The translations under genes and the position numbers were made by a program. The notes below the pieces were generated by a model. The model searched no databases, was not told where the DNA came from, and saw only the letters and a list, made by a program, of their open reading frames with translations. From a candidate division WOR-3 bacterium (GTDB lineage Bacteria > SDB-A), in assembly GCA_016934535.1 (NCBI GenBank), contig JAFGSQ010000019.1:2342-66341 (forward strand): a DNA stretch of 64,000 bases, read 5' to 3'. Positions 13,995 to 64,000 of this stretch are shown piece by piece. Each line of letters begins with the position of its first letter. Position 1 is the first letter of the stretch.

Positions 13995-14001
13995 GCGCTT
14001 T

Positions 14002-14583
14002 TTATTGGGAAAGTTTGTAAAGAGTTATCATGAAAGTCATCGTCGTCATAATGGTCCCCCATTCGGTCCAGGAAGGCCACCAGACTTTGGGTACGTATAT
14101 CACGTCACCTGATTTCAGTTCCACGTCCTTTTCAGTTCCCGACATTGCGAGACATTCTTTGAGATTCAGATGGATTTCATTTCCATCCCTGTACAAAGCT
14201 GCTCTTACAAGATCCGCTCTCTGAGCCGGACCTCCCGAAAGAGACAGAAGTCTGGAAGCGGTTATAGATCCTTCGACGTCATAAACCCCGGGAGATTTCA
14301 CTTCTCCCAGAATAGTTATATTCCAGACAGGTATGACATATACCGTCGGGTCCCTGTATATATCCCTCAGGTAACGGGAAATTTCATTCTGTGCCTGTTC
14401 GATCGTCAGTCCTTCGACCATGATCCTGCCTACGACAGGAAGGATGATCGTTCCGTCACTCTGAATCGTGTAAAGATTTTCTCTGCTTTCGGCTGATTCG
14501 GCGACAAGTATCACTTTTAGCTGGTCGCCTTTGGCGAAGACCTGAGAGACGGAACATAAAACAATTAAAATGAGGGAATTCAT
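14002..14583 (-). CDS. Polysaccharide export protein (Wza-like Poly_export/SLBB)
   Basis: Signal peptide MNSLILIVLCSVSQVFA; Poly_export motif GDQLKVILVAE...YTIQSDGTIILPVVGRIMVEGLT. Confidence 0.7.
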   Translation of the reverse strand: MNSLILIVLCSVSQVFAKGDQLKVILVAESAESRENLYTIQSDGTIILPVVGRIMVEGLTIEQAQNEISRYLRDIYRDPTVYVIPVWNITILGEVKSPGVYDVEGSITASRLLSLSGGPAQRADLVRAALYRDGNEIHLNLKECLAMSGTEKDVELKSGDVIYVPKVWWPSWTEWGTIMTTMTFMITLYKLSQ

Positions 14584-31966: not shown

Positions 31967-32057
31967 CTTTTTCTTAAACTTCATAATGAAATCCCAAGTT
32001 GTGATTTCAGCCGACGAAAGTTTTATGTTATAATAGTTTTTTTTGAAAAGGCGGAAA

Positions 32058-32645
32058 ATGGTATCTGTTTGCCCGCAATGCGGAGGAAAGGTAACACAGC
32101 GGATTTCCCCCCAGGTGGTCCTTTGCCCTTACTGCGGCAGTTCAGTCGAAGTTGAGGCGCTCTCATCTGAAGTCTGGACTCTGAACCCCGTGATAGAGAA
32201 AAAGGCGGCGTGGAATCTTGCCTCGTCCTGCATCGGTGAAATAAGTTTCATCAAAGGATATCTAGTGCCTTTTTCCTCTCCTCCGATAAGCGTTCCGCTC
32301 AACGAAAAAGCGCCGCGGGGTCTCAAATTGAGCTTCGGCGACAGAATTTTCAAGGACAGACTGGACGGATTCGAGACCTTGTCTTCAAAGAACAAACCTT
32401 ACGCCTACATACCTTTCTGGCAAGCAAAAAAAGACGGAGCCTGCGTATGGATTTCGGCATCCGACGGTTCTAGGACAGTGATAAAAGATGAAAAAAAACC
32501 GTCCAAAACTTTCCTGCTTGAAACAGTAGCGCTGGCATTATCGATAGCGGCGGGAACCGTCTGGAAATTGAGTTTCGCGCTTTCCGTACTCGCATTTTCC
32601 GCGATTTTCACGTTAAGTCTTTTTATAAGACCGGGAAAAAAATGA
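32058..32645 (+). CDS. Zinc-ribbon membrane protein of unknown function (paralog 1)
   Basis: ATG at 32058 after AAAGGCGGA. An N-terminal CPQC...CPYC ribbon; two C-terminal TM helices; an IPFW motif. Confidence 0.6.
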   Translation: MVSVCPQCGGKVTQRISPQVVLCPYCGSSVEVEALSSEVWTLNPVIEKKAAWNLASSCIGEISFIKGYLVPFSSPPISVPLNEKAPRGLKLSFGDRIFKDRLDGFETLSSKNKPYAYIPFWQAKKDGACVWISASDGSRTVIKDEKKPSKTFLLETVALALSIAAGTVWKLSFALSVLAFSAIFTLSLFIRPGKK

Positions 32646-33586
32646 ACGTATCAATATCATGCCCGTCATGCGCTTCGCCGGTTTCATACGCGTCAGGCAA
32701 CAAAGTCTGCAGGTGCCTGTCATGCGGAACGGTGCTGAAAATATTACTGACTGGCGGGATATTCAGTTACAGGAAGGAAATTCAGGAATCAATCCTGGAA
32801 AAAGCCGTGAAAACTTCTCTCGACGACTTCTGCCAGAACAATGATTACAGAATCATAGACAGAGATGTTATATTCCTGCCGATTTGGTGTGCAGAAGGAA
32901 GAGTTACCGGCTGGGTTTCCGGAAAAGTGAACAAAAAAAGGACACCTTATTCAGTGGAGGACGGAAAAGGAAAAAAAAGGGTTTTGTTCAGGACCGAGGG
33001 AGGAGAAGTACTCAGGAGGATAATTGACGTCCCTTTGACCTTTTTCGACGTAGACAACTCATTTTTCAGGGAATATTTTCCATCAGTCGATTTATTCTCC
33101 GGCGCCCGAGAAGACAACCTTCTTCTTTTCGATGAAGATAAAATGAAAGATTCCGGAAAAATATATTTTCCGGAAAAGGAAATTGAAGAAGCGAAAGCGG
33201 TTTTTGTAAAAAAAATGAAAGAAACCGCACTTTCGCATTGGGACGCGAAAAAATTCGACTTTTTCAGATCAGTTTCTGAAGTTTTGAATTTCAACCTGAC
33301 CCTGATATTCTATCCTGTCCTGTTAGTCAGGTTCGTTCTTTCAAAAAGAGAAGGATTTGTAATAATCGACTGTACGACCGGAAAAACAGCGGGCAGGAAA
33401 ATGACAGTGCTCAAATCCGGAGAAGAGAATTTCCTTGCCAAAAAAGGGCTTTTTTGCCTTGCCTCCTCTGTTGTGGGCTACGTCTCGGGGATACTGATAT
33501 CTAGAGGCGGTTTTTTTGCCGGCGTGGGGATTTTTCTCGCTCTCCTAGGCGCTGTTTTCCTGTTCAGGAAGAATTATGGCGATTAG
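32642..33586 (+). CDS. Zinc-ribbon membrane protein of unknown function (paralog 2)
   Basis: ATGA overlap with the previous gene. CPSC...CRC/CLSCG ribbons; an LPIW motif; two C-terminal TM helices; 314 aa. Confidence 0.6.
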   Translation: MNVSISCPSCASPVSYASGNKVCRCLSCGTVLKILLTGGIFSYRKEIQESILEKAVKTSLDDFCQNNDYRIIDRDVIFLPIWCAEGRVTGWVSGKVNKKRTPYSVEDGKGKKRVLFRTEGGEVLRRIIDVPLTFFDVDNSFFREYFPSVDLFSGAREDNLLLFDEDKMKDSGKIYFPEKEIEEAKAVFVKKMKETALSHWDAKKFDFFRSVSEVLNFNLTLIFYPVLLVRFVLSKREGFVIIDCTTGKTAGRKMTVLKSGEENFLAKKGLFCLASSVVGYVSGILISRGGFFAGVGIFLALLGAVFLFRKNYGD

Positions 33587-34286
33587 AATCGTTCCGCTCG
33601 TATGCGGTATATGCGGCAACAGCCTTAAAGCGAAAGATTCAGACCAGGTGTTTTTGTGCTCTCACTGCGTCAAGGCATTTGAACCGCAGGAAACGACTGA
33701 CAATGTTTTTAATGTATTGTCGTCTTCTTCTGAAGACTCCAGCGTTTTTCTTCCCTATTTCCTTATCAGGGGCACCGTGACAGAAAATGAAATTGAAATC
33801 ATAGACCTTGACGATCTCGCCGAACTGAGCGCCTCTGATTATTTCGGGACACTTAATCCTTTTCATGACAACGAAAAGACAAAAGAAGAAATTGTCATCA
33901 GCGCCGGCAAAAAAATGATAGAGGCAAAGATCCTCAAAAAACCATACTCATTATCAGTAGCCGTACCGGCTTTTAAGTCCAAAAACGCGATTCAATACGG
34001 TATGGAATACGGCAAAATTTTTCCCGCTGAACCAAGGTTTGAAAAAAAATACGCCGAACCGTCCCTTTCCCTGCAAATGTCTTCAGGCGGCGCGGTTTTA
34101 ACGGCAAAAAACCTTATTCTGAACGCGAGAGCTAAGGAAAACTCCTACATTCTCAGCATTGACTTCGACTGGAGAATTGATATTATAAGCGTCGTGATAC
34201 TCGGTTTCAAAGAAACCGGCGGTGTTTTGGAAAACGAAGAAACCGGCCTGAAGATTCCGAAGACAGCCCTGAAAGAGGACAAATGA
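33576..34286 (+). CDS. Zinc-ribbon protein of unknown function (paralog 3, soluble)
   Basis: 11-nt overlap with the previous gene. CGICG...CSHC ribbon; an LPYF motif; 236 aa. Confidence 0.55.
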   Translation: MAIRIVPLVCGICGNSLKAKDSDQVFLCSHCVKAFEPQETTDNVFNVLSSSSEDSSVFLPYFLIRGTVTENEIEIIDLDDLAELSASDYFGTLNPFHDNEKTKEEIVISAGKKMIEAKILKKPYSLSVAVPAFKSKNAIQYGMEYGKIFPAEPRFEKKYAEPSLSLQMSSGGAVLTAKNLILNARAKENSYILSIDFDWRIDIISVVILGFKETGGVLENEETGLKIPKTALKEDK

Positions 34287-35914
34287 CAGAAAAAACAAAA
34301 TTTTCAATAAAACGGGGACAAATCCCTTTTGAAGTGTTCAAATCTTCCGGCCTCAATCTTGAAAACGTCATAGCCTGCCGCCTGAACGGTTTTCCCGCGG
34401 ACCTGCTTCTGCAGGTAAAGGATTCATTCAATGTCACTCCTATAACCGCTTCCGATACTGATTGGCTGAGGATATACAGAAACTCGATGACCTTTCTCCT
34501 TTTCAGGGCGGTCAGCGAGATATTCAGAAACACTCGTGTGGTAGTCAACCATTCCATTTCTTCGGGATATTATTACGAAATTGTGTCGTCAGTTCTCCCG
34601 AGGGCCGACGAAATTACGGCCATCGAATCGAGAATGAAAAAAATCGCCGAAAACGACGAAGAAATCCAGCGGGAAGTAATTTCAAAAGAAAAAGCCGTCA
34701 AACTTTTTGAGAATAAAGGCAGAAAAGACACGGCCGGCCTTTTAAAAAATTACGACCGTGACGAAATCGTCCTGTACAAATCCGGCCCCGTTTTTGATTT
34801 TTATAATTCTCCTCTCGCTCCCAAAACCGGCATTCTCAAACATTTCGCTGTAAAATCATATCCGCCTGGAATCGTCGTTCAGTTTCCGTCTGCCAATAAC
34901 CCGTCAAAGCTCGGTCCGTGGAAAGAACAGAAAAAGCTGTTTAAAATATATCACGAACAGAGGAGATGGAATCAGATACTCGATATAATCAATGTCAGAG
35001 ACCTGAATCAGGCTATTGCCCGAGGAAAGGGAGGAGAAATTATCCGGGTCGCTGAAGCCCTGCACGAAAAGAAGCTTTCCGCTATAGCCGACGAAGTTTC
35101 CCACGACCGCCAGAAAAGGGTCATTTTGATTTCCGGACCGAGCTCGTCAGGAAAGACGACTTTTTCGCGCAGACTGACAATAGCCTTGCAGGTAAACGGA
35201 CTCCGGTCGGTGACTCTCTCGCTTGACAACTACTTCGTCGACAGAGAACAGACTCCCCTCGACGAAAAAGGGAATCCCGATTATGAGTCTCCTAAAACAA
35301 TTCAGACCGATTTATTCCGTGAACAGCTCCTGAGCCTCCTAAACGGCAAAAAGGTCCGGGTTCCCAAATTCGATTTCACGACGGGAAAGAAAAAAGTCAA
35401 TTCGGTCGAGACGTCCATAGAACCGGGTCACCCGATAATAATCGAGGGCATCCACGCCCTGAACGAAGATCTGACTGATATGCTCGAACCCGAAGTGAAA
35501 CTGAAACTTTACGCAAGTCCGTTGACGCAGGTCAACATGGACGATCACAACAGAGTAACTACGTCCGACTGCCGTATACTGAGAAGGATTGTCAGGGACA
35601 GCCAGTTCAGAGGCTACAGCCCCACGGACACAATTAACAGATGGCAGAGCATCTCCCGCGGCGAAGGAAGATGGATCTACCCTTATCAGGAAACCGCCGA
35701 CATCATGTTCAACACTTCTCTCATATACGAGATACCGGCCTTAAAAAGAAAAGCCGTCGAAATGTTAAAAACAGTAAAAGAATCTGAACCGGCGTACATG
35801 GAAGCAGTCAGGCTTCTATCAATTCTCGAATTTTACTCCGAGATGGAAACAGATGAAATACCATTCACTTCCGTCCTCAGGGAGTTCATTGGCGGAAGCG
35901 TTTTTAAATACTGA
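34283..35914 (+). CDS. Fusion of a threonyl-tRNA synthetase N-terminal (TGS plus second additional domain)-like region to a uridine/cytidine kinase-family P-loop kinase
   Basis: The N-terminal TGS-like region resembles the ThrRS N-terminus. The P-loop LISGPSSSGKTTFSRRL and the IIEGIHAL motif are typical of Udk/PRK kinases; 543 aa. Confidence 0.7.
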   Translation: MTEKTKFSIKRGQIPFEVFKSSGLNLENVIACRLNGFPADLLLQVKDSFNVTPITASDTDWLRIYRNSMTFLLFRAVSEIFRNTRVVVNHSISSGYYYEIVSSVLPRADEITAIESRMKKIAENDEEIQREVISKEKAVKLFENKGRKDTAGLLKNYDRDEIVLYKSGPVFDFYNSPLAPKTGILKHFAVKSYPPGIVVQFPSANNPSKLGPWKEQKKLFKIYHEQRRWNQILDIINVRDLNQAIARGKGGEIIRVAEALHEKKLSAIADEVSHDRQKRVILISGPSSSGKTTFSRRLTIALQVNGLRSVTLSLDNYFVDREQTPLDEKGNPDYESPKTIQTDLFREQLLSLLNGKKVRVPKFDFTTGKKKVNSVETSIEPGHPIIIEGIHALNEDLTDMLEPEVKLKLYASPLTQVNMDDHNRVTTSDCRILRRIVRDSQFRGYSPTDTINRWQSISRGEGRWIYPYQETADIMFNTSLIYEIPALKRKAVEMLKTVKESEPAYMEAVRLLSILEFYSEMETDEIPFTSVLREFIGGSVFKY

Positions 35915-51217: not shown

Positions 51218-52009
51218 TTACCTTCTCGCCCTTCCGGCGAGCCCCATTTTGCTTTCTGACCCAATAAACGAGAGGAGATTTTCTATCTCAGGAATTTTCC
51301 TGCACTCCTCTTCTATCTTTTTCACTCTGTCGTCGAAAAGAGGAATTTTACCCGAGAATAAAAAACCGTAAGCCTTCTTGAGCTCCTCTAATGTCTCTTT
51401 CTTGAAATTTGCCCTTCTCAGAGCGACGAGATTGAGCCCCAGCATGCCTATGGGTTCTCCCACCGCTTTTCCGTATGGCAGAACGTCTTTGTTTATTCTG
51501 TAGCCTCCGCCTACGAAAGAAAATCGTCCTATCCTCGTGAACTGGTGAATCGGACAGAGTCCGCTGATGAAAACGTTGTCTTCGACGACTACATGCCCCG
51601 AAAGCGCCGATTCGTTTGCTATCGTTATATTGTCTCCCAAAAGGCAGTCGTGGGCTATGTGGACAAACCCCATAATGAAACATCCGCTGCCTATGACTGT
51701 TTTTTTGTATCCGAGATTCGTACCCCGGTGAACCGTGACATATTCCCTGAGGACGTTGTTGTTCCCGATAACAGTCAGGCAACCCTCTCCCGGATCCTTG
51801 AGGTGTTGGGGATTTCCTCCGATGAGACAGCCTTTGCCTATCTGGCAGTTACTTCCTATCTTTGTTCCGGGCATTATCTCGGCGCAGGAACCTATGTACG
51901 TGTTGTCTCCTATTTCAACACCCTCGTGTATTATAGCAAAAGGCGATATATCAGCATCTTTTCCCAGGACTGCTTGTTTCGAGACTATTGCCGTTTCGTG
52001 AATTTTCAT
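51218..52009 (-). CDS. lpxA: Acyl-ACP--UDP-N-acetylglucosamine O-acyltransferase
   Basis: Left-handed beta-helix hexapeptide repeats from the N-terminus [27 protein letters not shown]...; 263 aa. Confidence 0.9.
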
Positions 52010-52449
52010 CTGTCCGCCAGTTTAGCTTTTAAAACACCTTCACAGGCGAGCTCTCCTTCTACTGTGCTTCTGGCCTTCATCACGCATACCCCGTGCCTGT
52101 AGCTTTCGAGGTAAAGTTCGTGCCGGAGAGTATCACCCGGGACGACGGCTCTCCTGAACTTTACAGCGTCTATTCCGAGAAAAAGAAGTATCTTTCTATC
52201 GGGATTTTCCACTTTTCTAAGTAGCAGAAATCCGCCGGTCTGAGCCATTGATTCCACTATGAGAACTCCGGGCATGATGGGATTGCCGGGAAAATGACCC
52301 TGGAAAAAAGGTTCGTTCATTGTGACGTTCTTTATTCCGACGACCCTGTCGTCTGAAATCTCAATTATCCTGTCTACGAGCAAGAACGGATACCTGTGAG
52401 GTATCAGCCTCATAATTTCCTCAATTTTCAGCGAGTTCTGATCAGGCAT
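52006..52449 (-). CDS. fabZ: 3-hydroxyacyl-ACP dehydratase
   Basis: Start MPDQNS... after GAAAGGAGG. Hot-dog motifs [13 protein letters not shown] and [13 protein letters not shown]. Confidence 0.9.
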
Positions 52450-53293
52450 CTTTCCCCTCCTTTCGGCCGTTATATGATAGAGACAGTTTTTGAACAAAAT
52501 CAAGATGTAACGAGTGTCCCGGACAAAACGCGAAAATTCTTCCTCTCAGTTTTTTCGGAAAAAGCATGAGGTCTCCGAGAAAATCGAGGGCTTTGTGCGC
52601 ACAGAGTTCGTCTTCGACCCTGAAAGAGCAGCCCTCCAGTAATTTTCCATGTTTTCCGACTACGAGCGCGTTCTCGAGGGATCCCCCGTTGATGAGGCCG
52701 CGCTCTCTGAGAGAGTCCAACCAGCTTTCGAAAGCAAAAGTCCTGGCCCCAGCGATTCTTGTTCCCAAGTCTTTTGAGAAGGCGTCGAATGTGAGATGTT
52801 CGCAATTGACTCCCTCTTCGGGGAACGATATCAATACTGTTATCACAAGGCTTTCTTCTCGCCAGGGTGCGAAAAGAATCTCGGAAAAACCTTTTTTTAC
52901 GTAAACAGGCATTTCTTCTTCATATTCGTCTCTGAAATTTTTCGTGTCTTTTGTTCCGGACCCGTTAATAGCTTCGACAAAGGGAAGAGCGCTTCCATCG
53001 AGAAATGGTACCTCTTCACCCACGACTTCAATTCTCACATCCGTAATACCGGTAATAAAGAAAGCAGACATGACGTGTTCTATCACCTCTATCTGCGTAC
53101 TTTTACCTTTCAGCGCCGTACATCTTCTAGACGAGTCCGCATTTTGCGGAAGCGCTTTAATTTCCTCACCTCTGGAAAAAAAAACTATCCCTCCGTCATC
53201 GGATGGCAAGATTTTCAAACTGCATTTTCCGCCATTGTGAAGACCGGTCCCAGAGATTTTTATCGTTTCTTTAAGCGTTCTTCTATTAGTCAA
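52442..53293 (-). CDS. lpxC: UDP-3-O-acyl-N-acetylglucosamine deacetylase
   Basis: N-terminus [22 protein letters not shown]; 283 aa; two-domain LpxC fold motifs. Confidence 0.9.
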
Positions 53294-54272
53294 GTTTCCT
53301 CAATTTTTTAGCCATCTGAGGTAGGAATTTCAAAGAAGCTATCACTCTCCTTGCCAGGGATATGTCCATGGCAGGTATCCAAAGATATACCGCACCGTCC
53401 GGAACGTTTCCGGAAACTCCGCTCTTTGCCATTATGACGGCATTTTTCCCGATTTTGGCGTGATCCGCGATACCTACCTGCCCTGCCATCATAGTTCCGG
53501 ATCCGACTTCGACGCTGCCGCTTATACCTGTCTGTGATGCTATGAGACAGTTTTCTCCTATGCTGACGTTATGTCCGACCTGTACGAGATTATCAATTTT
53601 CGTCCCTTTTCCCACTACTGTTTCGTCGAGCATTGCCCTGTCTACTACGGCATTGGCGCCAATTTCCACGTCATCCTCAATGATTACCCTTCCTATCTGA
53701 GGTATTTTTATCGCTTTCCCGCTTTCACGAAGATATCCGAAACCGTCGCTCCCGATGACGGTTCCCGGATGAACGATGACCCTGTTGCCGATAGAACAGT
53801 TCCTCAAAACAGTGACGTTAGGATAAATGGTGCAATCTGAACCGATTTGAGAGGATTCGCCGACATAACAGTTGGCGCTGATGACCGTGTTGTTGCCGAT
53901 GACGGCATTATCCGAGATGACTACGTTTGGTCCGACCGATACACTGTCGCCCAAAACAGCGTCTTTTGATATCACGGCCGTCGGATGGATTCCTTTGTCC
54001 GTATTGATTACAGCGAAAAACTCTCTCATGACCCTGACGAAAGAAAGATAGGGATTCTCGGCCTCAATTCCTTTTTCAAGACCAAGACCCGGCATGCAAA
54101 TTATCGCCGCCCCTTTTTCCGAGGCTTTGGCCAATTCATTTTCGTCTTTTTTGTCAAGGAAAGTCAGAGAACCTTTTCCTGCTTTTACGATAGAGGAAAG
54201 TATTTGTATCTCAAAATCCGGATCTCCGATTAACTTGCCGCCTGCTATTGCAGCGGCTGAAGAAAGTTTCAA
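53286..54272 (-). CDS. lpxD: UDP-3-O-(3-hydroxyacyl)glucosamine N-acyltransferase
   Basis: N-terminal domain followed by extensive hexapeptide repeats; 328 aa; positioned between skp and fabZ. Confidence 0.9.
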   Translation of the reverse strand: MKLSSAAAIAGGKLIGDPDFEIQILSSIVKAGKGSLTFLDKKDENELAKASEKGAAIICMPGLGLEKGIEAENPYLSFVRVMREFFAVINTDKGIHPTAVISKDAVLGDSVSVGPNVVISDNAVIGNNTVISANCYVGESSQIGSDCTIYPNVTVLRNCSIGNRVIVHPGTVIGSDGFGYLRESGKAIKIPQIGRVIIEDDVEIGANAVVDRAMLDETVVGKGTKIDNLVQVGHNVSIGENCLIASQTGISGSVEVGSGTMMAGQVGIADHAKIGKNAVIMAKSGVSGNVPDGAVYLWIPAMDISLARRVIASLKFLPQMAKKLRKLD

Positions 54273-54284
54273 GTGTTCCCCCTT

Positions 54285-55229
54285 CTACAGCTCTGTCGCA
54301 ATGTCCGACACAAGGAGCTCTACGGCTCTTTCGAGGTTCTCTGATTTTTCGAAATTCTGCTCTACGGCGAGTAATTCTCTAAAAAGCTCCGCAGAATAAA
54401 GGAAAAGCTTTAAATTGTACTGTTCCCCGGTTTGAGTTATCTGCCCCCTGACAATGTAATCGGCGCCAAGGAAAGAAGCGAGCGCGGCGAGCTGGGATTC
54501 TGTTACTGATTCTATAGAAGTAATCGCGTTCTGGGTCATCCCCTGGGACACGTCGTCTCCTTTGGACATCTCTACGTTTGCAATGTTCATAAGAGCCGTA
54601 TTGACCATTGAGGAAGCCGTCAAAGCTATACCTGACGCTCTGGCGTCGGCTGTAGTTGCCACGACAGATAAAAACGCAAGTATTGTCTTTTCTGCCTCCG
54701 TTGTGTCGACGACGGTAATGTATTCGGCGTTGAGTCTCGTAAGTATTTCGGATGTAATGTCAAGTCCGGGTTCAGCGTAAAGTATGACTCCCGACGAGAC
54801 GTCCAAAACAACGGAGAGATTCTTTAATTCCGAGACTTCTTCTATGGTCCTGTTTATCTGAGCCACTGGAGATTCCGTCAATTCTTCGGTTTTGTTTTTC
54901 AACAAACCGTCCTCTCCCCACACAGATTGAATAAAAGACTCGTAATCAGTCTTTTTTTGATTTATGAGATCCCTCCTGCGGGCGATCTCTTCCTCGGAGA
55001 GTGTCACGGCTTCAGTTTCAAGTTCGGATTGAAGAGTCAGCCATTCCCTCTTTTTTGTTTCGGCTTCGTTCGTCCAGTTGTTTTCAAGTATCTGAAGCTG
55101 GGATCTTAGATCGTTCATCGCCGTATACTCTCTGAAAATCCTCTCTATGTCCACGTATCCGATTTCTCCGGCCGACAAAGTCCCGTAAAGAAAAAACGCG
55201 ACAAATAATTTGAAAATTGCTTTTTTCAT
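54285..55229 (-). CDS. skp: OmpH/Skp-family periplasmic chaperone with a roughly 140 aa C-terminal extension
   Basis: Signal peptide MKKAIFKLFVAFFLYGTLSA, then a coiled-coil Skp region of about 170 aa (VVLDVSSGVILYA). Canonical bamA-skp-lpxD placement. An extra C-terminal domain of unknown function is present. Confidence 0.7.
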   Translation of the reverse strand: MKKAIFKLFVAFFLYGTLSAGEIGYVDIERIFREYTAMNDLRSQLQILENNWTNEAETKKREWLTLQSELETEAVTLSEEEIARRRDLINQKKTDYESFIQSVWGEDGLLKNKTEELTESPVAQINRTIEEVSELKNLSVVLDVSSGVILYAEPGLDITSEILTRLNAEYITVVDTTEAEKTILAFLSVVATTADARASGIALTASSMVNTALMNIANVEMSKGDDVSQGMTQNAITSIESVTESQLAALASFLGADYIVRGQITQTGEQYNLKLFLYSAELFRELLAVEQNFEKSENLERAVELLVSDIATEL

Positions 55230-55244
55230 TCAAGCGCCCCTTGC

Positions 55245-57608
55245 TCAAAAGTTTGTGCCGAACTGTATATGCGGTTTCCAGTCTCCCGATGAAAAACCGT
55301 ACGCGTAATCTACGCCGATTATGCCAAGCATGGGTATATTCAGCCTGAAACCCACTCCCGCGCTTTTGTAAAAGTCGCCGAAGCTTCTCGAACCGCCGAC
55401 CGAATACGGGTCCGGCCAGGTATTCCCGGCATCTGCAAACAATGATACGTTCGCCATGTCGCCAAGATTGACGGAATACTGAGCGTTCAAAAGGATCGCC
55501 GTCGCGCCGCCCTTTACGTCTCCGTCCCTTACAGGGCCTATTGTGTATTCGTCATATCCTCTGACGCCCCAATCTCCGATGCCGCCGAGTCTGTATAACT
55601 CATACACGGGGACATCGGCGCCTCCCGTCGAATAAAAATCCGAAATCACTCCAGTTTTATTTCTGAACATGAGAGAAGTCGACGGCATATTGGATCCCGG
55701 CATTTTCGTAGTCACCGGAATAAAATATTTGAACTCGAACACGTGTTCCCTGAAATTGACATCTCCCTGCATGAAGCCGCCCGTTAGATTGGTGGCAAGT
55801 GAAAAATACGACCCGCGGGACGTGTTGAAATATTTGTCCCTTGAATCCCTGACGAAAGTCAGACCGAAACGGCTTATATACTTGAGCCCCTCCTGCGACT
55901 TCAGGTAGTCGCTCGCGCTGTCCTGATCGAATATGTCAACTTCGACCCGCTCGATTGTGTAGGAATTGTAGATTTTGGAAAAGTTTATCCAGGGCAGTTG
56001 TCTCGCAGTGTTTATCTGGAATCCTTCTTTTCTGTATTTGTAGTTGTCCATTTCGTAAGTCGTCGCGAAAAATCTCACTCCTCCGGCCCAGTTTGTACCG
56101 AAAATCCACGGTTCGAAATAACCTATGTCAAAATTCCACATTTTTGAGTTTATATCGAATTCAAGGTCGAACGATTCACCTTTTCCGAGAAGATTGGGAA
56201 CGGCGAACTTGGCGTAGGCACCCACTCCGCCGTAATGTGAATATGTCGCTCCTCCCCTTATTTCCCCGGATTTCTTTTCGAAGACCTCAATTATCAGATC
56301 CGCGTAAGCGATACTGTCGTTTGAGCTGTCGACAGGCGATATATCGGGTATTATATTGTCGAAAAAACCCAGGTTGAAAATTTTCTGTGAAGTCAGTCTC
56401 AATCCCGAGACAGAAAAATAATCTCCGGGCAACTGCGTTATCTCTCTTCTTATCAGTCTGTCTCTGGTCCTGTAATTTCCTATAATCTCGACGAGTCTTA
56501 TCTTCACTCTCGGACCTTCCCTCAGCTGCCATTTTATGTCAACAAAACTGTCCCTTCTCGTCTGAACAGGATTGAACTGCACGTAAATGAAGCCGCTGTC
56601 GGCGTAAATTTCGCTCATCACCCGCTGGGTTTTTTCCAATTTTACAATGTCATAAGGCTTCCCTTCGCTGTAGGATATTAATTTGCGAAGAAATTCTTCG
56701 TCGAGAAACACCTGCCCTTCGAAAGAAGTCGAACCGAAAAATTTTTCTTCGCCTTCTGTCAGATAGACGTCAATGGAGACCAGCGTCGATTCTTCGTTGA
56801 AAGTGTAGTTGAAACTGTCCACTATTGCGTCGGGAAATCCTCTGCTTTTCAGCGCTCTTTCTATTGATTCTATGTCGGAGGATTCAAAAATGTTTTGATT
56901 GAAACCGCCTTTTCTGAAAAGACCGAATCTGTAAAAACTCCGGAAACCGCTCCAGCCGTAAAAACCCCATTCTCTGTTCTGAAGTCCGGTTTTTATATTT
57001 TCGGCCTCCAATGAATAAAGCCCGTTCAGATATATTGATGCGATCGTGATTTTTCTTCCTTCGGCAATGTCTATAACGACCGATACCCGGTTTTTGGAAT
57101 CAGGTTCGCTTGCGATCACATCTACGACGGTCCCTATGTATCCTTCCCTTCCGTAGGAATCCAGAACAAATTTCTTCCAGATCGCGATCTTTCTCGGTGT
57201 GACTGTTCTTCCTCTGAAAGGCCCCTCCGCCCAACCTCTGAGAACAGCTGTGTCTGCAGAACCGTGAGAAAGCCATTTTCTCATGTCTTCCTCGGATATT
57301 CTTCCGCACCCTCTTAATATCAGAGAATCGAGGACGGGATTTTCAGTGACATCGATGATCAGAGTCAGCTGGTCCAAGTCTTCTGTAAAAGTGTCGAGGG
57401 ACACATCGCTGAATAGATCCGTGGCGTAAAGATTTTTGATTATCATCGCAGAGACAAAGGGGGAAAATTCAGCGCCTTCCGCAAGACCGGCCATTTGAAT
57501 GACCTGATCCTCGCTCGATCTGTCGTTTCCGGTGATTCTTACAGCCGAAATCGTTTTAGCCCAGACGCAGACGGGCAATAAAAGAGCCAAAAATAATAAT
57601 TTTTTCAT
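55245..57608 (-). CDS. bamA: Outer membrane protein assembly factor BamA
   Basis: Start MKKLLFLALLLPVCVWA. Multiple POTRA domains, and a C-terminal 16-strand barrel ending ...HIQFGTNF; about 787 aa. Confidence 0.85.
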   Translation of the reverse strand: MKKLLFLALLLPVCVWAKTISAVRITGNDRSSEDQVIQMAGLAEGAEFSPFVSAMIIKNLYATDLFSDVSLDTFTEDLDQLTLIIDVTENPVLDSLILRGCGRISEEDMRKWLSHGSADTAVLRGWAEGPFRGRTVTPRKIAIWKKFVLDSYGREGYIGTVVDVIASEPDSKNRVSVVIDIAEGRKITIASIYLNGLYSLEAENIKTGLQNREWGFYGWSGFRSFYRFGLFRKGGFNQNIFESSDIESIERALKSRGFPDAIVDSFNYTFNEESTLVSIDVYLTEGEEKFFGSTSFEGQVFLDEEFLRKLISYSEGKPYDIVKLEKTQRVMSEIYADSGFIYVQFNPVQTRRDSFVDIKWQLREGPRVKIRLVEIIGNYRTRDRLIRREITQLPGDYFSVSGLRLTSQKIFNLGFFDNIIPDISPVDSSNDSIAYADLIIEVFEKKSGEIRGGATYSHYGGVGAYAKFAVPNLLGKGESFDLEFDINSKMWNFDIGYFEPWIFGTNWAGGVRFFATTYEMDNYKYRKEGFQINTARQLPWINFSKIYNSYTIERVEVDIFDQDSASDYLKSQEGLKYISRFGLTFVRDSRDKYFNTSRGSYFSLATNLTGGFMQGDVNFREHVFEFKYFIPVTTKMPGSNMPSTSLMFRNKTGVISDFYSTGGADVPVYELYRLGGIGDWGVRGYDEYTIGPVRDGDVKGGATAILLNAQYSVNLGDMANVSLFADAGNTWPDPYSVGGSRSFGDFYKSAGVGFRLNIPMLGIIGVDYAYGFSSGDWKPHIQFGTNF

Positions 57609-57652
57609 TTTTGTTTTCGCACCCCTGACATGAATTGTTTCTTCCGGGCAGC

Positions 57653-60214
57653 TCACCCGCCGGCGGAACTCTCTCCCGGCATTCCTGCCAAATCTTCGGT
57701 TTTTTCAACTGGTATATTGAGCATGCACTTAACGTCTTTTACTACAAATCTCAATTCTTTACCGGACCTCTCTATTACAACTACATCGTTGACCTTTACC
57801 GAACCCTGCAGAAATTCCTCGACAAGAGGGTCTTCGACGTATCTCCTGAACGCCCTCCTCAAAGGCCGGGCTCCGAAGGAAGGGTCGTATCCTTCTTCGA
57901 CGAGAAGTTCTTTGGCGCTTTCAGAAAGCTCAATTCCGATTTCTTTTTCCTTCACCCTCTCTTTGACCTCTTCGAACACGAGTTCTATTATCTTTTTCAT
58001 GTCTTCTCTCGTAAGTCTTCTGAATACGACCACTTCGTCAATTCTGTTTATGATTTCCGGATTTATTATTCTTTTAAGCTCCGAGAGAATGTTTTCTTTC
58101 ATTTTATCGTAATCAATATTTTCCGGTGTAGAACCGAATCCCATCGGTTTCGAACGGGTTATGTCTTTTGTGCCAATGTTCGAAGTCATTATTATCACAC
58201 TGTGCCTGAAACTTATTTTTCTGCCGAGGCTGTCGGTGATTTCGCCTTCTTCCAAAAGCTGAAGCAATATGTTCAGGACGTCGATGTGGGCTTTTTCAAT
58301 CTCATCAAAAAGAACGACCGAATAAGGTTTGACGCGGATTTCTTCAATCACGGGATTTTGTTCGCCGTATCCTATGTAACCGGGCGGAGAGCCGATGAGT
58401 CTTGACACGGAATACTTTTCCATGTATTCGCTCATGTCAATCCTTATGAGGTTGCTCTTGCTTCCGAAAAGGATTTCAGCCAGGGATCTCGCCAGTTCCG
58501 TTTTACCCACGCCCGTAGGTCCGAGAAAAAGAAACGATCCAAGAGGTCTTTTTGGGTCTTTTAAACCCATCCTTCCCCTTCTGATCGCTCTGCTGACTGC
58601 TTTGATTGCTTCAGTCTGGCTTATGACTTTGGCCGCAAGCAAATCTTCGAGATTGACGAGTTTGTCGTGTTCTTTTTCCTGAAGCCTCTGAATGGGTACA
58701 TTCGTCCACATGCTGACCACTTCCCTGACATCTTCTTCGGTCACTACCGGAGTGACCTTGTCAGACATCTTGAGCCATTCTTTCTGCTTGGTGTCAATCT
58801 CTGCTCTTATTTTGGCTTCCTTGTCCCTGAATTCCGCGGCTTTTTCGTATTGCTGATCCGATACGGCTTTTATCTTGACTTCGAGGATATTTTTAAGCCG
58901 TATTTCGTCTTCCACAAGATCAGGATACGGGGGCACGGAGGATAATTTGACTCTGGCTCCGGTTTCATCGATGACGTCTATTGCTTTATCGGGAAGCTGT
59001 CTGTCCGTTATGTATCTGTCGGCGAGGATAGCCGCTGCTTTTAGAGCGCTGTCTTCGTAACTGACACCGTGATGCTCTTCGTATTTTTCCCTGAGACCTT
59101 TAAGTATGTTTATTGCTTCTGAAATCCCCGGGGATTCAACAAGTATCGGTTGAAATCTTCTCTTCAGAGAACCGTCTTTTTCAATGTGTCTGTGATATTC
59201 AGCCACGGTCGTGGCTCCAATGCATTTAATTTCACCTCTCGCCAGAGAAGGTTTCAGAATGTGGGAGGCGTCGAGGGAACCTTCCGCTGAACCCGCCCCA
59301 ACAATCGTGTGCAGTTCGTCAATAAAAAGAACTATGTCATCCCTGTTCTTTATAGTTTCAATTATTGATTTCATCCTGCTTTCGAACTGACCTCTGTATT
59401 TCGTTCCGGCTACAACCGAAGCGAGATTGAGCTGATAAAACTTTTTACCTATGAGAGAAGGAGGAACGTGTCCCTGAACTACTTTTTGCGCGAGACCTTC
59501 GACAATGGCTGTTTTTCCGACACCGGCTTCTCCTATCAGCACCGGATTGTTTTTCCTTCTTCTGGAAAGGACTTGTATGACTCTTTCGATTTCTTTGTCT
59601 CTGCCGATTATCGGATCAAGCTTTCCTTCTTCCGCGAGACTCGTAAGATCTCTGCAGAAATCTTCGAGTGCGAACTTATCTTCTTCCTCGTCGTCGATGT
59701 TTTCGCGGGAGCGTCCAATCTTCCTCTTGTCCTCTTCTTTCACGGAAAAATCACTCTCTTCTATGAGGTTCTGCAGTCCTGCACTGAATTGGACATAAGT
59801 AATATCAAGGCTTTTCATCACTTCTCCGGCCGCAGAATGTATGTTGTCGAGAACGGACAGCACAAGGTGTTCTGTGCCGATGAACATGTGTGAAAGCTCT
59901 TCCGCTTTTTTCATGGAACCCTGAATCACGCTCTCGACCTCTATTGTCGGGACGGGATCTTTGAAATTCGGCGGATATCTCGGAGTCTCTCTGTATAAAT
60001 CATTTTTGTAGATTCTTGCGGCAATTATCTTTTTCATCAGTGAAATATCAACGCCGAGTTTTTGAAATATCTTTACTGCAAAGCAGTTCGTCTCTGTCAA
60101 AATCGCGTAGAGAATATCCAGTGTCGTGTAATAGCCTCTCTTGTGAAGCTTCGAATTCTTCTGCGCAGACATAATTATTTTTCTGTATCTCAATGTAAAA
60201 TTTTCGCTGTTCAT
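57653..60214 (-). CDS. clpC: ClpC-type Clp/Hsp100 ATPase (double Clp_N, two AAA+ modules, UVR-like linker, ClpP-docking loop)
   Basis: Walker A motifs [15 protein letters not shown] and [16 protein letters not shown] short linker bearing [15 protein letters not shown] (UVR-like, not the long ClpB M-domain). A PMGFG loop; 853 aa. Confidence 0.85.
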
Positions 60215-61254
60215 GCCTTTCTCGCAGTCATTTCGACAAACATCGCCAGACTGAGATCTTCCCCTCCTTCTGTTTGCTCAATTATAGCATCTCTGTGTCC
60301 TCTTCTCAAAATAAAGAAGAGATCCGAAACCGTCTCTTCGGAATACCTTTCTTCCAATCCCAAATCGAATCCGAGCCTGAGGACAGAAGCCGCGTTTGCG
60401 TATTCCGAGAATTTCAAAGAGCTGACTTTCTTCTCTCCGAAAATCTCAAATCCGCTTTTTAAATAGTTTTCAACGGCTTTTTTATTGTACATTACAAAAT
60501 ATTCCCGCGCAAACAATTCATTTTCGGCAAAACAGTCAGAGAAATAATCAACTTCGTCCATTGCCTTTGATTCTTTTTCAGATGTTTTCTGATTCGATAT
60601 CTGACAGAATGAACCGGCTGTTTTCGTCCCTTCTCCGAAAATGCCTCTCAAAGCCAATCCGCATGCTTTTGCCGCACGGACTATTTTTTTTTCATTTCCC
60701 GACAAAAACACGCACGGAGCGTGAAAAAGGTTAGAGTACCTCATTCCTGTTCCTCTGTTCGTAGGGCAGGCTGTCTCGAAATCGCCTTCAGCCGTTCTGG
60801 CAAAAGGAAATGCACTTTCAATTTCACCGCTAAGTGAAAGAGCTTCTGAAAGACAGGACTGGCCTTTTCCGGGGACTGAAATGATCTGTATTCTGACATC
60901 GTCTTCGTCGTTGACGAGGATTGATGTCTTTTCATCAGGGCTGACAAAAAGACATAGTCCGAAAGACGGGGAGGAATTCAGAAGATGCCTTTCGGCAAGT
61001 ATCCTGCAGTGAGACTCGCTCGCTTCCCAAAGATTAATTCTTATGAAGTCTCTTCCGGAAACTGCTTTTTCAACTATTCCGGCTATCTCTTGCGCATCCT
61101 TTTTTTTGACGTCAAAATTTCGAGCCAGCCTGACTCTTGTGCTGAATACGACTTTTCTGTAATCGGCTCTGAACCATGAAGGCGCTTTTTGCCTGATCCT
61201 TTCGACGAAACTCAAAGCGTTTTCAGTGTTATTTTTTCGAGTCGTAAATGTCAA
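60211..61254 (-). CDS. mcsB: Protein arginine kinase McsB (ATP:guanido phosphotransferase family)
   Basis: Motifs STRVRLARNF, CPTNRGTGMR and RGIFGEGTKTAGSFCQISNQ align with the B. subtilis McsB motifs SSRIRLARNF, CPTNVGTGLR and RGIYGEGSEAVGNIFQISNQ. There is a 4-nt overlap with clpC. Confidence 0.85.
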   Translation of the reverse strand: MTFTTRKNNTENALSFVERIRQKAPSWFRADYRKVVFSTRVRLARNFDVKKKDAQEIAGIVEKAVSGRDFIRINLWEASESHCRILAERHLLNSSPSFGLCLFVSPDEKTSILVNDEDDVRIQIISVPGKGQSCLSEALSLSGEIESAFPFARTAEGDFETACPTNRGTGMRYSNLFHAPCVFLSGNEKKIVRAAKACGLALRGIFGEGTKTAGSFCQISNQKTSEKESKAMDEVDYFSDCFAENELFAREYFVMYNKKAVENYLKSGFEIFGEKKVSSLKFSEYANAASVLRLGFDLGLEERYSEETVSDLFFILRRGHRDAIIEQTEGGEDLSLAMFVEMTARKA

Positions 61255-61929
61255 TTATACCAGAATCCCCTGATTCAATCGCAGAATACGGTCGCACAGA
61301 GCGCTTATACCGGGGTTGTGAGTGACGACTATGACTCCGCAATTGTTATTCCGCGCAAGCTTCAAAAAGACGGAAAGAACAATCCGGGCCGTTTTGCCGT
61401 CGAGATTTCCCGTTGGCTCATCGGCGAGAATTACTTTCGGATAGTTGGCCACCGCCCTTGCTATGGCTACCCTCTGTTTTTCGCCCCCCGAAAGCTGGGA
61501 AGGGTGATGGGCAATACGCTCGGACAAGCCCACGTCATCCAGTATTTCTTTTGCTCTTTCTTTGGACTTGTTTTTTTTCATACCGGCGACTAGCATAGGC
61601 AACATTACATTTTCCAGAGCGCTCAGCTCGGATATGAGGTTGTGAAACTGAAAGACAAATCCGATTGTGCTGTTTCTCAATTTTGAGAGCTCGTGGTCTC
61701 TGTGTTCGCGGATGTTTTTTCCGTTCAGATAAAGATTTCCGGAGGTCGGTTTTTCAAGAGTTCCGAGTATGTGAAGAAATGTCGTTTTGCCGCTCCCGGA
61801 CGGACCTTCTATTGCAGCGATCTCTCCGCCTTCAAGAGTGAAATCAATACCTCCCAGGACTTTTATCGTGTCCGTTCCGCTTTCAAAGTTTTTTACTATG
61901 CTCTCGGCTCTTATAATGACTTCATTCAT
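61255..61929 (-). CDS. lolD: Lipoprotein-releasing system ATP-binding protein (MacB/LolD family ABC ATPase)
   Basis: Start [15 protein letters not shown] at 61929. Walker A GPSGSGKTT, signature LSGGEKQRVAIARA and Walker B ILADEPTGNLD. Confidence 0.8.
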   Translation of the reverse strand: MNEVIIRAESIVKNFESGTDTIKVLGGIDFTLEGGEIAAIEGPSGSGKTTFLHILGTLEKPTSGNLYLNGKNIREHRDHELSKLRNSTIGFVFQFHNLISELSALENVMLPMLVAGMKKNKSKERAKEILDDVGLSERIAHHPSQLSGGEKQRVAIARAVANYPKVILADEPTGNLDGKTARIVLSVFLKLARNNNCGVIVVTHNPGISALCDRILRLNQGILV

Positions 61930-63163
61930 AACGCAAAGCCTCCACGGGCAACAGCCTAGAAGCCCTGTAAGCCGGATATATGGCCGAAATAAACGATATT
62001 CCAAGAGAACAAAGAGATATGACCACAACATCGATAGGGTTTACTGTTATAGGAAGAGAGGATATCACATAAACGTCGGTGTCTATAGGAAACTCGTATC
62101 TGCCAAGAGCAAAGCAAATGGCAAGGCCGACGAGAATTCCCAGAGCCGTCCCTACAAAACCCATGATGGTCCCCTGAAGGACGAATATTCTCATGACGTC
62201 AAAGCGCGTCAGACCTATGGACCTCAATATTCCTATTTCACGGGTCTTCTGAATCACTATCATTATCAAAGTGGAAACTATGTTGAACGCGGCCACAATT
62301 ATTATCATAAAAAGGATCAGCGTCATTGCAGTCTTTTCGAGTTTTAATGCGGCGAAAAGATTCTTGTTCAATACAAGCCAATCCTGAACGGAATAAGAAA
62401 AACCGAGTTTGTCCTGCAATCTTTTCGATATTCTTCTGACTTCCATCATATCCTTAACTGCAATTTGAAATCCGGTCACTTTTCCTTCAAGTTTGACAAT
62501 TTTCTGAGCGTCTTCGAGCCTAACAAAAATCCACGAACTGTTGTATTCGTAAAGGCCCGCGTCTATTACACCGACGACTTCACCCTTGTATATCTTTGGA
62601 ACAGGTCCCACGGGGGTTATCGTGCTCGAAAGCACGGAAAAGATTTCAATTACGTCTCCCGTTTCCACCTCGAGATTTTCTGCGAGCATGTTTCCAATAA
62701 CTACCGGAATGACGTTCTCATTGACGGGATCCACCAAAAAAGCACCTTCAATTATTTTCTCTTCTATGTCGCTGACTTGTCTTCCTGAAGCCATGTCGTA
62801 TCCCCTGAGAAGGACACCGTCGATGGCATTCTTTTTCCTTATCATCACCTTCGAAATGACGAATGGAGAGATACCGGTTATCTCTTTCGTCAGGATATCG
62901 TCGGAAGCTATCGCGGCGTTGATTTCTTTAAGGCTGGTATCGGGAGAGCTGATTCCCTGAGTGACAATTATGTGAGCGTTGACACCGACAATTTTCTTTT
63001 TTATGTCTGTGTGGAGACCGTTCATAACCGACACGACGGCTATCAGCGTCGCCACCCCGACCATGACCCCTCCTATTGACAAGATCGTTATGAAAAGCTG
63101 AAATTTATTGGTTTTCGGCGGTTTCAGATATCTTTTAGCGAGCATCGAATGATAGCGCGTCAT
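61922..63163 (-). CDS. lolE: Lipoprotein-releasing system permease (LolC/LolE, FtsX-like)
   Basis: A 413 aa protein with four TM helices and a large periplasmic loop. There is an 8-nt overlap with lolD. Confidence 0.8.
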
Positions 63164-64000
63164 ATTTCCTCATTAGTCTTCTGAACGGGCTTCAGCTGAG
63201 GGAAAGTGATTACCTCCCTTATGTTTTCAGAAGAGGTGAAAAGCATCGCCAATCTGTCTATTCCGAGTCCGAGCCCTCCGGCCGGCGGCATTCCGTAAGA
63301 CATCGCAAGAAGAAAATCCTCATCGACCGGTTCGTATTCTTTTTCACCCTGCTTTCTGAGTTCGTTCTGGTATTCGAGCCTCTTTCTCTGCTCAACAGGA
63401 TCGTTTAGTTCGGAAAAACTGTTCCCGAGTTCCATGCCGAGTACGATCGGTTCGAATCTTTCGACGAGAAGCGGATTTTTCCTGTGAGTCTTTGCAAGGG
63501 GAGATATTTCGAGAGGATGGTCCATGACGAACGAAGGTTCAATGAGGTTTGGCTGGACGAGAGCCGAGAAAAGGGCATCGACTATCTTGCCTCTGTGGTT
63601 TTTTTTGTCAATCTCGATGTTCTTTCTGCGGCAGAAGTCCAAGAGCGCTTCTTTGGAGAGGTTTTTCATGTCCTCTCCGGTCGCTTCTTCGAGGGAATCC
63701 CAGTAATCCAATCTTTTCCAGGATTTCGAAAAATCAATTTCTCTCTCTCCTGTTATCAGGACAGGTGTTCCGAACAGTTCGATACAAACCTCGCGGAATA
63801 TGGCTTCCGTAAGGTCCATCATCGCGAAATAATCCACGTATGACCAGTAGATTTCGACCTGAGTGAATTCGGGATTGTGATCCTTGTCCACTCCTTCGTT
63901 CCTGAAATCCTTGGCGAACTCGTAAACTCTCTCAAATCCTCCTATGAGAAGTCTTTTAAGATAAAGCTCGTTGGAAACCCTGAGATAAAAATCAGTTCCC
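63160..64000 (-). CDS. lysS: Lysyl-tRNA synthetase (class II), C-terminal catalytic part. The gene continues beyond the right edge of the window.
   Basis: Motif 2/3 region ([19 protein letters not shown]...[14 protein letters not shown]) and a C-terminus ...FPQLKP. The N-terminal anticodon-binding domain is not in the window. Confidence 0.85.

Follow-up and report, generated by a model that had tools for sequence, protein, structure and literature searches.

The window analysed here is a 64,000-nucleotide stretch of contig JAFGSQ010000019.1, from a bacterium of candidate division WOR-3. On its minus strand it carries a gene for a protein resembling the arginine kinase McsB, followed by a gene for an Hsp100 unfoldase of the ClpC type. 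What is known of arginine phosphorylation as a tag for degradation comes almost wholly from Bacillota, where McsA, self-assembly of McsB driven by phosphoarginine (pArg) and two pArg pockets of ClpC serve as means of control. Both open reading frames (ORFs) were found where a first inspection, made from the letters alone and called the sequence-only reading below, had placed them. As that reading had also noted, the stop codon of the mcsB-like gene overlaps the start of clpC; the same 4-nt overlap was called in the loci of three close relatives (L001, L087 and L089; L numbers denote loci or contigs, P numbers proteins), which is consistent with translational coupling of the two genes. At the other end of mcsB, the lolD stop abuts the mcsB ORF, and there is therefore no space for mcsA between the two. 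The core of the locus consists of the following features.

60211..61254, minus strand: mcsB-like gene, 347 aa if read from the first TTG (NCBI starts at the TTG at 61215, giving 334 aa)
57653..60214, minus strand: clpC, double-ring AAA+ unfoldase of the ClpC type, 853 aa
60211..60214, minus strand: ATGA overlap of mcsB stop and clpC start, read from the sequence
61255..61929, minus strand: lolD (NCBIfam TIGR02211, E 4e-80), its stop abutting the mcsB ORF

A divergent McsB and its ClpC partner

The McsB-like protein matched the Pfam family ATP-gua_Ptrans (PF00217, E 1.9e-26), and the top solved structures were those of B. subtilis McsB (8wtb and 6tv6, E 3e-34), well above arginine kinases. The assignment had been called strong on account of three kinase motifs. 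All three are present, namely STRVRLARNF (residues 38-47), CPTNRGTG (163-170) and RGIFGEG (203-209), but the protein reached only 146 and 151 bits on NCBIfam, below every curated McsB cut-off (385 for NF002194, 500 for NF053707), and the NCBI record of the identical protein names it a hypothetical protein (JXL83_04045) of a candidate division WOR-3 metagenome-assembled genome (MAG). Canonical diderm McsBs gave 401 bits (L077, cut-off 385) and 398 bits (the canonical WOR-3 protein P0047). Identity to McsB of the B. subtilis/G. stearothermophilus type is about 25-28%, and the score against B. subtilis McsB is 122 bits, compared with 344 bits for a McsB of the Planctomycetes-Verrucomicrobia-Chlamydiae (PVC) group.

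Among 5.8 billion clusters, only three close relatives of the protein were detected, all from WOR-3 MAGs and 55-60% identical to it. Together with the window they make up what we call the clade (the window, L001, L087 and L089; MAGs GCA_016926475.1, GCA_016929715.1 and GCA_964397545.1 besides the JXL83 WOR-3 MAG). A metagenome-contig scan with clade-specific peptide patterns yielded no further relatives. One Logan sample, SRR13394437 (L006, L088 and L090), contained clade members P0001, P0003 and P0004 in a single run, with McsBs 55-58% identical, from which it follows that several species of the clade co-occur in one habitat. The distance of clade McsBs to any canonical McsB was at least 0.75, while canonical McsBs differed from each other by at most 0.70 across phyla; judged by these distances, the clade protein is a long-branch outlier among the 85 McsBs compared.

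An AlphaFold2 model of the window McsB was confident in both domains (pLDDT 86, pTM 0.86). In Foldseek comparisons it matched full-length McsB (6tv6 and 6fh3) with a template-modelling (TM) score of about 0.8, including the C-terminal helical domain, and phosphagen (arginine) kinases with about 0.5. A C-terminal helical dimerisation domain is thus predicted by the model, and the precomputed Pfam domain McsB_C (PF27454) was not annotated on any clade McsB. With the phosphagen kinases (arginine and creatine kinases) the protein shares the PF00217 catalytic domain; unlike them, it has no N-terminal helical domain and carries the C-terminal domain of the McsB type instead.

We aligned the 85 McsBs (81 canonical and four of the clade) and used B. 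subtilis numbering, with the roles of residues taken from the structural literature (PMC11046695, PMC8370763). The relevant sites in the window protein are these.

61102..61122, minus strand: lambda1 segment RNFDVKK, shortened to about 7 residues from the canonical 14 (alignments)
60898..60912, minus strand: NDEDD, a variant of NEEDH, with the Glu of B. subtilis E121 kept and His replaced by Asp
60745..60768, minus strand: CPTNRGTG, with the catalytic cysteine (B. subtilis C167), from the alignment
60244..60264, minus strand: GEDLSLA, degenerate pArg receptor site (canonical ERDIRRA), B. subtilis R337 and R341 both lost

The catalytic residues are conserved. All four clade proteins keep the glutamate (B. 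subtilis E121), the cysteine (C167), SxRxRLARN, RGxFGEG, QISN and the ATP-binding arginines; in two of them CPTN has become CESN. The arginines of the SxRxRLARN, xxRIQ, GMR and LRG motifs we take to correspond to those that bind the nucleotide in phosphagen kinases. The regulatory sites behaved differently. In the 81 canonical McsBs lambda1 has 14 residues with a conserved Phe-Pro, while in the clade it has 7-10 residues and no Phe-Pro; in B. subtilis this loop supplies the McsA contacts E37, H38, F41, T43 and R44 (PMC11046695). The pArg receptor site of McsB consists of R337, D338, R341 and S285 (PMC8370763). Every canonical protein has R341 and nearly all have R337, and no arginine is left at this site in the four clade McsBs. 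The combination of a short lambda1 lacking Phe-Pro, NDEDD and the absence of R337 and R341 occurs in the four clade proteins only. The window has a lysine at the position of R194, an autophosphorylation site in B. subtilis; this was given no weight, since canonical McsBs themselves vary at R194.

The unfoldase aligned colinearly with B. subtilis ClpC (PDB 3j3s) over residues 5-826 with 799 bits, and Pfam recognised Clp_N, AAA, AAA_lid_9, UVR, AAA_2 and ClpB_D2-small. Both rings have Walker A/B pairs (GEAGVGKT with FIDELH, GPTGVGKT with LFDEIEKA). The middle domain is short, with Pfam UVR at residues 447-471 and no long ClpB coiled coil, so that the earlier description of a ClpC with a UVR-like short linker and a PMGFG loop holds. 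Four sites are relevant here.

60116..60127, minus strand: first N-domain repeat, reading TTLD instead of GTEH, with Leu for the Glu (E32) of the pArg2 site
59867..59878, minus strand: second N-domain repeat, GTEH, the pArg1-site Glu (B. subtilis E106) retained
58823..58855, minus strand: tip of the middle domain, UVR-like motif, Tyr at the position of B. subtilis/S. aureus F436
58133..58147, minus strand: PMGFG, ClpP-docking loop, aligned to YVGFN (VGF) of B. subtilis ClpC

In ClpC of B. subtilis and S. aureus, E106 (pArg1) and E32 (pArg2) are the key pocket residues, and E106 matters most for activation (PMC12583610). The pArg-receptor residues that the sequence-only reading had asked about are therefore present in part: the equivalent of E106 is kept and that of E32 is not. 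Of 56 ClpCs encoded next to McsB whose first motif was readable, the 52 of canonical loci all have GTEH and only the four of the clade have TTLD; the second GTEH is kept in all ClpCs compared, with GAEH in one canonical protein.

Compared with the McsA-McsB-ClpC(P) system of B. subtilis and G. stearothermophilus (6tv6, 6fh1-3, 8wtb, 3j3s), the window thus shares the two-domain McsB fold, the catalytic Glu/Cys/Arg set and the position of mcsB directly upstream of clpC, as well as, in ClpC, the short middle domain of the UVR type, the loop for ClpP and the pArg pocket around E106. It differs in lacking ctsR and mcsA, in the shortened lambda1, in NDEDD for NEEDH, in the loss of R337/R341 and of the ClpC E32 pocket, and in the location of the module among envelope-biogenesis genes.

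The losses in McsB could also be explained by a protein with weak or no kinase activity, retained as an adaptor or activator of ClpC or decaying as a relic within an essential operon. Its extreme divergence from B. subtilis McsB, the change of an invariant NEEDH to NDEDD, the CESN variants and the failure at curated thresholds would all fit such a fate. McsB of B. subtilis is also a ClpC adaptor, which would favour it further. On the other hand, the catalytic Glu and Cys and the conserved motif arginines are the same in all four species, whose proteins share only 55-60% of their residues, each of the four clade loci has an intact mcsB ORF with apparent translational coupling to clpC, and the structural model is confident over both McsB domains. 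Furthermore, the principal pArg pocket of ClpC is kept, and without a kinase this pocket would be ligandless. We regard an inactive or weakly active protein as unlikely.

McsA across phyla and in the WOR-3 clade

One genome per GTDB species was scanned with the McsB alignment, and the best 80 of at least 600 matches served as comparison loci (taxon names are those of their records; two labels of the form "Bifidobacter*" fall among Verrucomicrobia in the tree). The matches listed were canonical McsBs only, with 27-36% identity; since no clade member was among them, the scan is uninformative on genomes of the clade. Six-frame ORFs of the 80 loci were searched with the window proteins and two McsA sequences. 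The loci belonged to Planctomycetota, Verrucomicrobiota, Gemmatimonadota, Lentisphaeria, Veillonella and Bacillota. Many diderms thus possess McsAB-ClpC, which is common in Planctomycetota, Verrucomicrobiota, Gemmatimonadota, Omnitrophota-like bacteria and WOR-3, and a McsB in a diderm that makes lipopolysaccharide, presented by the sequence-only reading as unusual, has many counterparts among the 80 loci in Planctomycetota, Verrucomicrobiota, Gemmatimonadota and Lentisphaeria. The literature searched still treats the system as a Gram-positive one to which Chlamydia forms an intriguing exception (PMC10128030). The absence of ctsR likewise loses the meaning first given to it: CtsR, searched with a seed from Paenibacillus (the ORF that precedes mcsA there), was found in 21 loci of Bacillota and Veillonella and neither in any other locus nor in the window, and a missing ctsR is what is expected outside Bacillota. 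The pairing of mcsB with clpC varies as well. No clpC lies directly downstream in 21 of 59 non-Bacillota mcsAB loci (among them L007, L019, L022, L024, L040, L057, L058, L061, L067, L072, L079, L081 and L083), many of them from Phycisphaerae/Planctomycetota and some cut by contig ends, and coupling of the two genes is hence not universal in diderms.

A missing mcsA is a different matter. Where enough upstream DNA was available, an McsA homologue directly preceded mcsB in 77 of 80 loci, namely all 23 of Bacillota and 54 of the 57 others, and these proteins matched NCBIfam NF053706 over the full length of the model (E 1e-36 to 4e-54). Between lolD and mcsB of the window, L001, L087 and L089 there is no mcsA, the lolD stop abutting the mcsB start, and a profile covering full and mini forms of McsA found no match in these four sequences (about 115 kb in total). 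Neither an McsA-like ORF nor a ctsR homologue occurs in the 64-kb window, so the observation that both genes are absent next to mcsB stands.

Two candidates for a disguised McsA in the clade were tried and rejected. The first was a fusion, with a remnant of McsA forming the N-terminus of clade McsBs, but the approximately 13 extra residues are free of cysteine and the region aligns to the normal N-terminal helix of McsB. The second were the zinc-ribbon ORFs at 32043-34286, which gave only a tblastn E of 0.17 and neither a Pfam nor an McsA-profile match. The plus-strand region 32043-35914 in which they lie holds three consecutive ORFs of 200, 314 and 236 aa, each opening with a CxxC...CxxC zinc ribbon and devoid of Pfam matches, and after them the gene of a protein of 543 aa that has a domain of the PRK/uridine-kinase family.

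Intermediates between the canonical state and that of the clade came from a search of 1.84 billion cluster representatives with a clade profile, in which P0121 and P0122 scored 252 and 232 bits and canonical McsBs at most 171. Their contigs, L091 (Logan SRR27456861) and L092 (GCA_049975185.1), read prfB-lysS-lolCE-lolD-[small ORF]-mcsB-clpC, and the longer L092 runs on into bamA-skp-lpxD-lpxC-fabZ. The small ORFs encode a reduced McsA, which we call mini-McsA.

L091:4942-5226: mini-McsA ORF of 94 aa, between lolD and the divergent mcsB
L092:7742-7996: mini-McsA ORF of 84 aa, between lolD and the divergent mcsB

Both zinc fingers, Z1 (CxxC...CxxC) and Z2 (CxxC...GCxxCY), are present in mini-McsA, which lacks the linker between domains, the L3 loop and the coiled-coil/UVR domain; NF053706 is matched in the Z2 region (E 1e-8 and 7.6e-5). 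Four such proteins were found among the 5.8 billion clusters by a word-indexed search that scored 18 candidates; JGI names one of them McsA. In a neighbour-joining tree the McsBs of L091 and L092 group with the clade. These two loci share with the clade the synteny, the divergent McsB subfamily, the loss of receptor-site arginines and the degenerate first N-domain motif of ClpC (TTLD and TTMD). They differ from it in the McsA remnant, in a 14-residue lambda1 with Phe-Pro and in the motifs NQEDH and NDEDH, where the histidine is kept. As read from the sequences, the loci then give a stepwise reductive series.

Stage 1 (L077, L032, L038): McsA of full length, McsB canonical
Stage 2 (L091, L092): mini-McsA (Z1 and Z2 only), receptor-site arginines lost, lambda1 intact
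Stage 3 (the window clade): no McsA, lambda1 shortened, NDEDD

The clade might still possess an ordinary McsAB-ClpC system whose mcsA has moved elsewhere in the genome. The clade DNA in hand leaves room for this, amounting to about 64 kb of the present genome and 11-21 kb per relative, and unlinking has a precedent in Chlamydia trachomatis, a diderm that, like the window bacterium, has ClpC and a McsB homologue (PMC10128030). There, however, mcsA lies beside mcsB and it is the pair that is apart from clpC (PMC10128030), while in the window mcsB and clpC are coupled and mcsA is missing. The adjacency of mcsA and mcsB is thus kept even in Chlamydia, besides being near-universal among the 80 loci, and the window and the three other clade loci hold no McsA-like ORF. 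A word-indexed profile search for mini-McsA returned none from NCBI MAGs of the clade, a weak negative because only 18 candidates were scored. Most tellingly, the McsA-docking loop is shortened only in the lineage without mcsA, and the sister lineages with mini-McsA retain it. The loop tracks the McsA remnant, and this is the strongest evidence available that McsA is truly dispensable rather than unlinked. Two canonical loci, L056 (Verrucomicrobiia) and L066 (Planctomycetota), have a McsB with intact lambda1 and no McsA ORF detected immediately upstream, which agrees with unlinking; an unlinked mcsA, an assembly problem or, in L066, background noise from high-GC ORFs could be the cause. Altogether, relocation of mcsA appears to us very unlikely in the clade.

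A proposed McsA-independent module

At this locus mcsA has been lost and McsB and ClpC have changed correspondingly, a real and rare combination that the literature searched does not describe. The reading that we prefer, with moderate confidence, is that the clade McsB is a functional, McsA-independent tagging kinase, as the sequence-only reading had proposed as one possibility; the distribution of the short lambda1, confined to the clade and absent where mini-McsA persists, makes it the best of the explanations considered. By homology to the Bacillota system, the McsB-like kinase would phosphorylate arginines of substrate proteins, and the co-translated ClpC would bind pArg through the retained pArg1 pocket with its E106-equivalent glutamate, unfold the substrates and pass them to ClpP through the MGF loop. 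Comparison of the sequences shows a stepwise removal of the regulatory layer: mcsA was deleted from a string of genes that is otherwise conserved, lambda1 was cut by about 7 residues, both arginines were lost from the receptor site, through which McsB self-assembly and allosteric activation are driven, and so was the E32 pocket of ClpC.

What is known of McsA in B. subtilis suggests how such a reduction could have been tolerated. McsA docks on lambda1-3, raises McsB activity 5-6 fold and rearranges the catalytic loop (PMC11046695). As its effect is a 5-6 fold activation, B. subtilis McsB alone has a basal activity. McsA also prevents the pArg-dependent self-assembly of McsB (PMC11046695), so that a McsB without its receptor site would depend on McsA less. 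With this need reduced, the kinase would most likely work as a constitutive, McsA-independent enzyme. A lesser need for McsA in the absence of the receptor site also fits the order of losses, the receptor arginines being lost in stage 2 and McsA altogether in stage 3.

Several observations weigh against this model. The biochemistry of McsB is confined to Bacillota, and the Chlamydia proteins could not be purified (PMC10128030); the ClpCP of C. trachomatis degrades arginine-phosphorylated casein (PMC10128030). NEEDH, invariant in the 81 canonical McsBs, is NDEDD in all four clade members, and this could lower or alter catalysis. The scores of the window McsB fall short of the curated cut-offs; canonical McsBs sat in the input alignment of the structural model, which leans towards their fold; and the McsB tree is a simple neighbour-joining tree, prone to long-branch effects. 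Neither clpP nor ywlE, the gene of an arginine phosphatase, was found among the window ORFs scanned. Finally, the sampled part of the clade genomes would permit an unlinked full or mini mcsA.

The clade appears to run arginine phosphorylation without the control layer known from Bacillota, and the intermediates survive, from full McsA through mini-McsA to none. The locus would offer a natural minimal McsB-ClpC pair for dissecting the roles of McsA and of the receptor site. The co-evolution of lambda1 and McsA is independent support for the McsA-lambda1 interface seen in crystals. Nothing is overturned by these data: they describe a lineage-restricted reductive variant in uncultured bacteria.

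The envelope gene string

In the order of transcription, the minus-strand genes around the module read lysS-lolCE-lolD-mcsB-clpC-bamA-skp-lpxD-lpxC-fabZ-lpxA, separated by overlaps or gaps of at most about 45 nt. Genes and strand had been given correctly by the sequence-only reading, but the end of the string runs lpxD-lpxC-fabZ-lpxA and not lpxD-fabZ-lpxC-lpxA. Identities rest on Pfam and NCBIfam searches of the window and on precomputed Pfam domains of the syntenic genes in L001, L087 and L089. Apart from lolD, mcsB and clpC, the string consists of the following genes.

63160..63891, minus strand: 3' part of lysS (ORF-finder extent, Pfam tRNA-synt_2), the whole gene extending farther upstream and visible at full length in L006
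61922..63163, minus strand: lolC/E permease gene (TIGR02212, E 3e-100)
55245..57608, minus strand: bamA (TIGR03303, 392 bits, cut-off 297), its ORF open from 57656 and its start likely the ATG at 57608 with signal peptide MKKLLFLALLL
54285-55229, minus strand: skp (Pfam OmpH)
53286-54272, minus strand: lpxD (precomputed Pfam of syntenic genes)
52442-53293, minus strand: lpxC (precomputed Pfam of syntenic genes)
52006-about 52449, minus strand: fabZ (precomputed Pfam of syntenic genes)
51218-52009, minus strand: lpxA (precomputed Pfam of syntenic genes)

The embedding of the module among envelope genes had been taken as a trait of this lineage, and this could not be upheld. The string lysS-lolCE-lolD-mcsA-mcsB-clpC-bamA-skp-lpxD is complete in L032 (Longimicrobiales), L038 (Gemmatimonadales) and the MAG L077, with gene order and orientation around the module identical to those of the window, and the best-scoring matches to the BamA, Skp and LpxD of the window were those of L077. 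Unlike the window, these Gemmatimonadota loci and L077 have a full-length McsA (167-176 aa, NF053706), an intact lambda1 and NEEDH, and a retained R341. In the PVC/Planctomycetales loci L003, L010, L044 and L052 the string is lysS-lolCE-lolD-x-mcsA-mcsB-clpC-mlaEFD. Linkage of lysS-lolCE-lolD to mcsA-mcsB-clpC thus crosses phyla (L003, L010, L032, L038, L044, L045, L052, L063 and L077 besides the window, where it spans 51218-63891), with clpC followed by bamA-skp-lpxD in Gemmatimonadota, L077 and WOR-3 versus mlaE-mlaF-mlaD in PVC/Planctomycetales. Of 47 non-Bacillota loci, 12 have an ATPase resembling LolD on the same strand, no more than 3.5 kb upstream. The lol...bamA embedding of the module is an old synteny, an ancient diderm gene string. 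McsAB-ClpC is found widely among diderm phyla, and its linkage to lolCDE and bamA recurs; nothing relevant on McsB with Lol or with PVC phyla was found in the literature searched, where this linkage goes undiscussed.

An altered active-site motif and lost regulatory sites, in a gene whose place between lolCDE and bamA-skp-lpx is conserved across phyla, could also point to a kinase that no longer serves general protein quality control and acts instead on a small guanidino compound, in the manner of a bacterial phosphagen kinase, or on a few envelope-biogenesis clients. We consider such a switch highly improbable. The protein has the C-terminal domain of McsB and not the N-terminal helical domain of phosphagen kinases, its model resembles McsB far more closely than arginine kinases (TM 0.8 vs about 0.5), and the coupling to ClpC favours proteins as its substrates. 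The synteny, moreover, is older than the divergence of the clade McsB and consequently does not explain it.

A bolder reading would make the pArg kinase-ClpC module an integral part of a lolCDE-mcsAB-clpC-bamA-skp-lpxD operon in several diderm phyla, clearing precursors of lipoproteins and outer-membrane proteins or Lpx enzymes that do not get out of the cytoplasm or have to be cleared from it, with the kinase of the WOR-3 clade as an autonomous, unregulated tagger. We hold this to be quite unlikely. The module may be functionally coupled to outer-membrane biogenesis; this is guilt by association, to which the cross-phylum linkage lends some footing. If the bolder reading is true, arginine phosphorylation would take part in envelope quality control, a role never described in the Gram-positive models.

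The mcsB-clpC pair is probably co-transcribed with lolCDE and bamA-skp-lpx. A consensus scan detected no excess of terminators or promoters in the string. One near-consensus match to a sigma-70 promoter falls in the 3'-terminal part of mcsB, with about 95 nt between it and the ATG of clpC, and is kept in all four clade loci.

60281..60309, minus strand: sigma-70-like promoter match, TTGAGA-17-TATAAT

The match overlaps the invariant peptide HRDAII, and conservation at synonymous sites is only mildly above the mcsB background; for these reasons it amounts to a hint of an internal clpC promoter.

Elsewhere in the window, a polysaccharide export pair occupies 11487-14583 on the minus strand, with a Wzc-like protein (GNVR and a P-loop of the tyrosine-kinase type) and a Wza-like protein (Poly_export/SLBB). 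The window also holds ordinary housekeeping genes (queA, ruvCAB, yebC and pyr genes).

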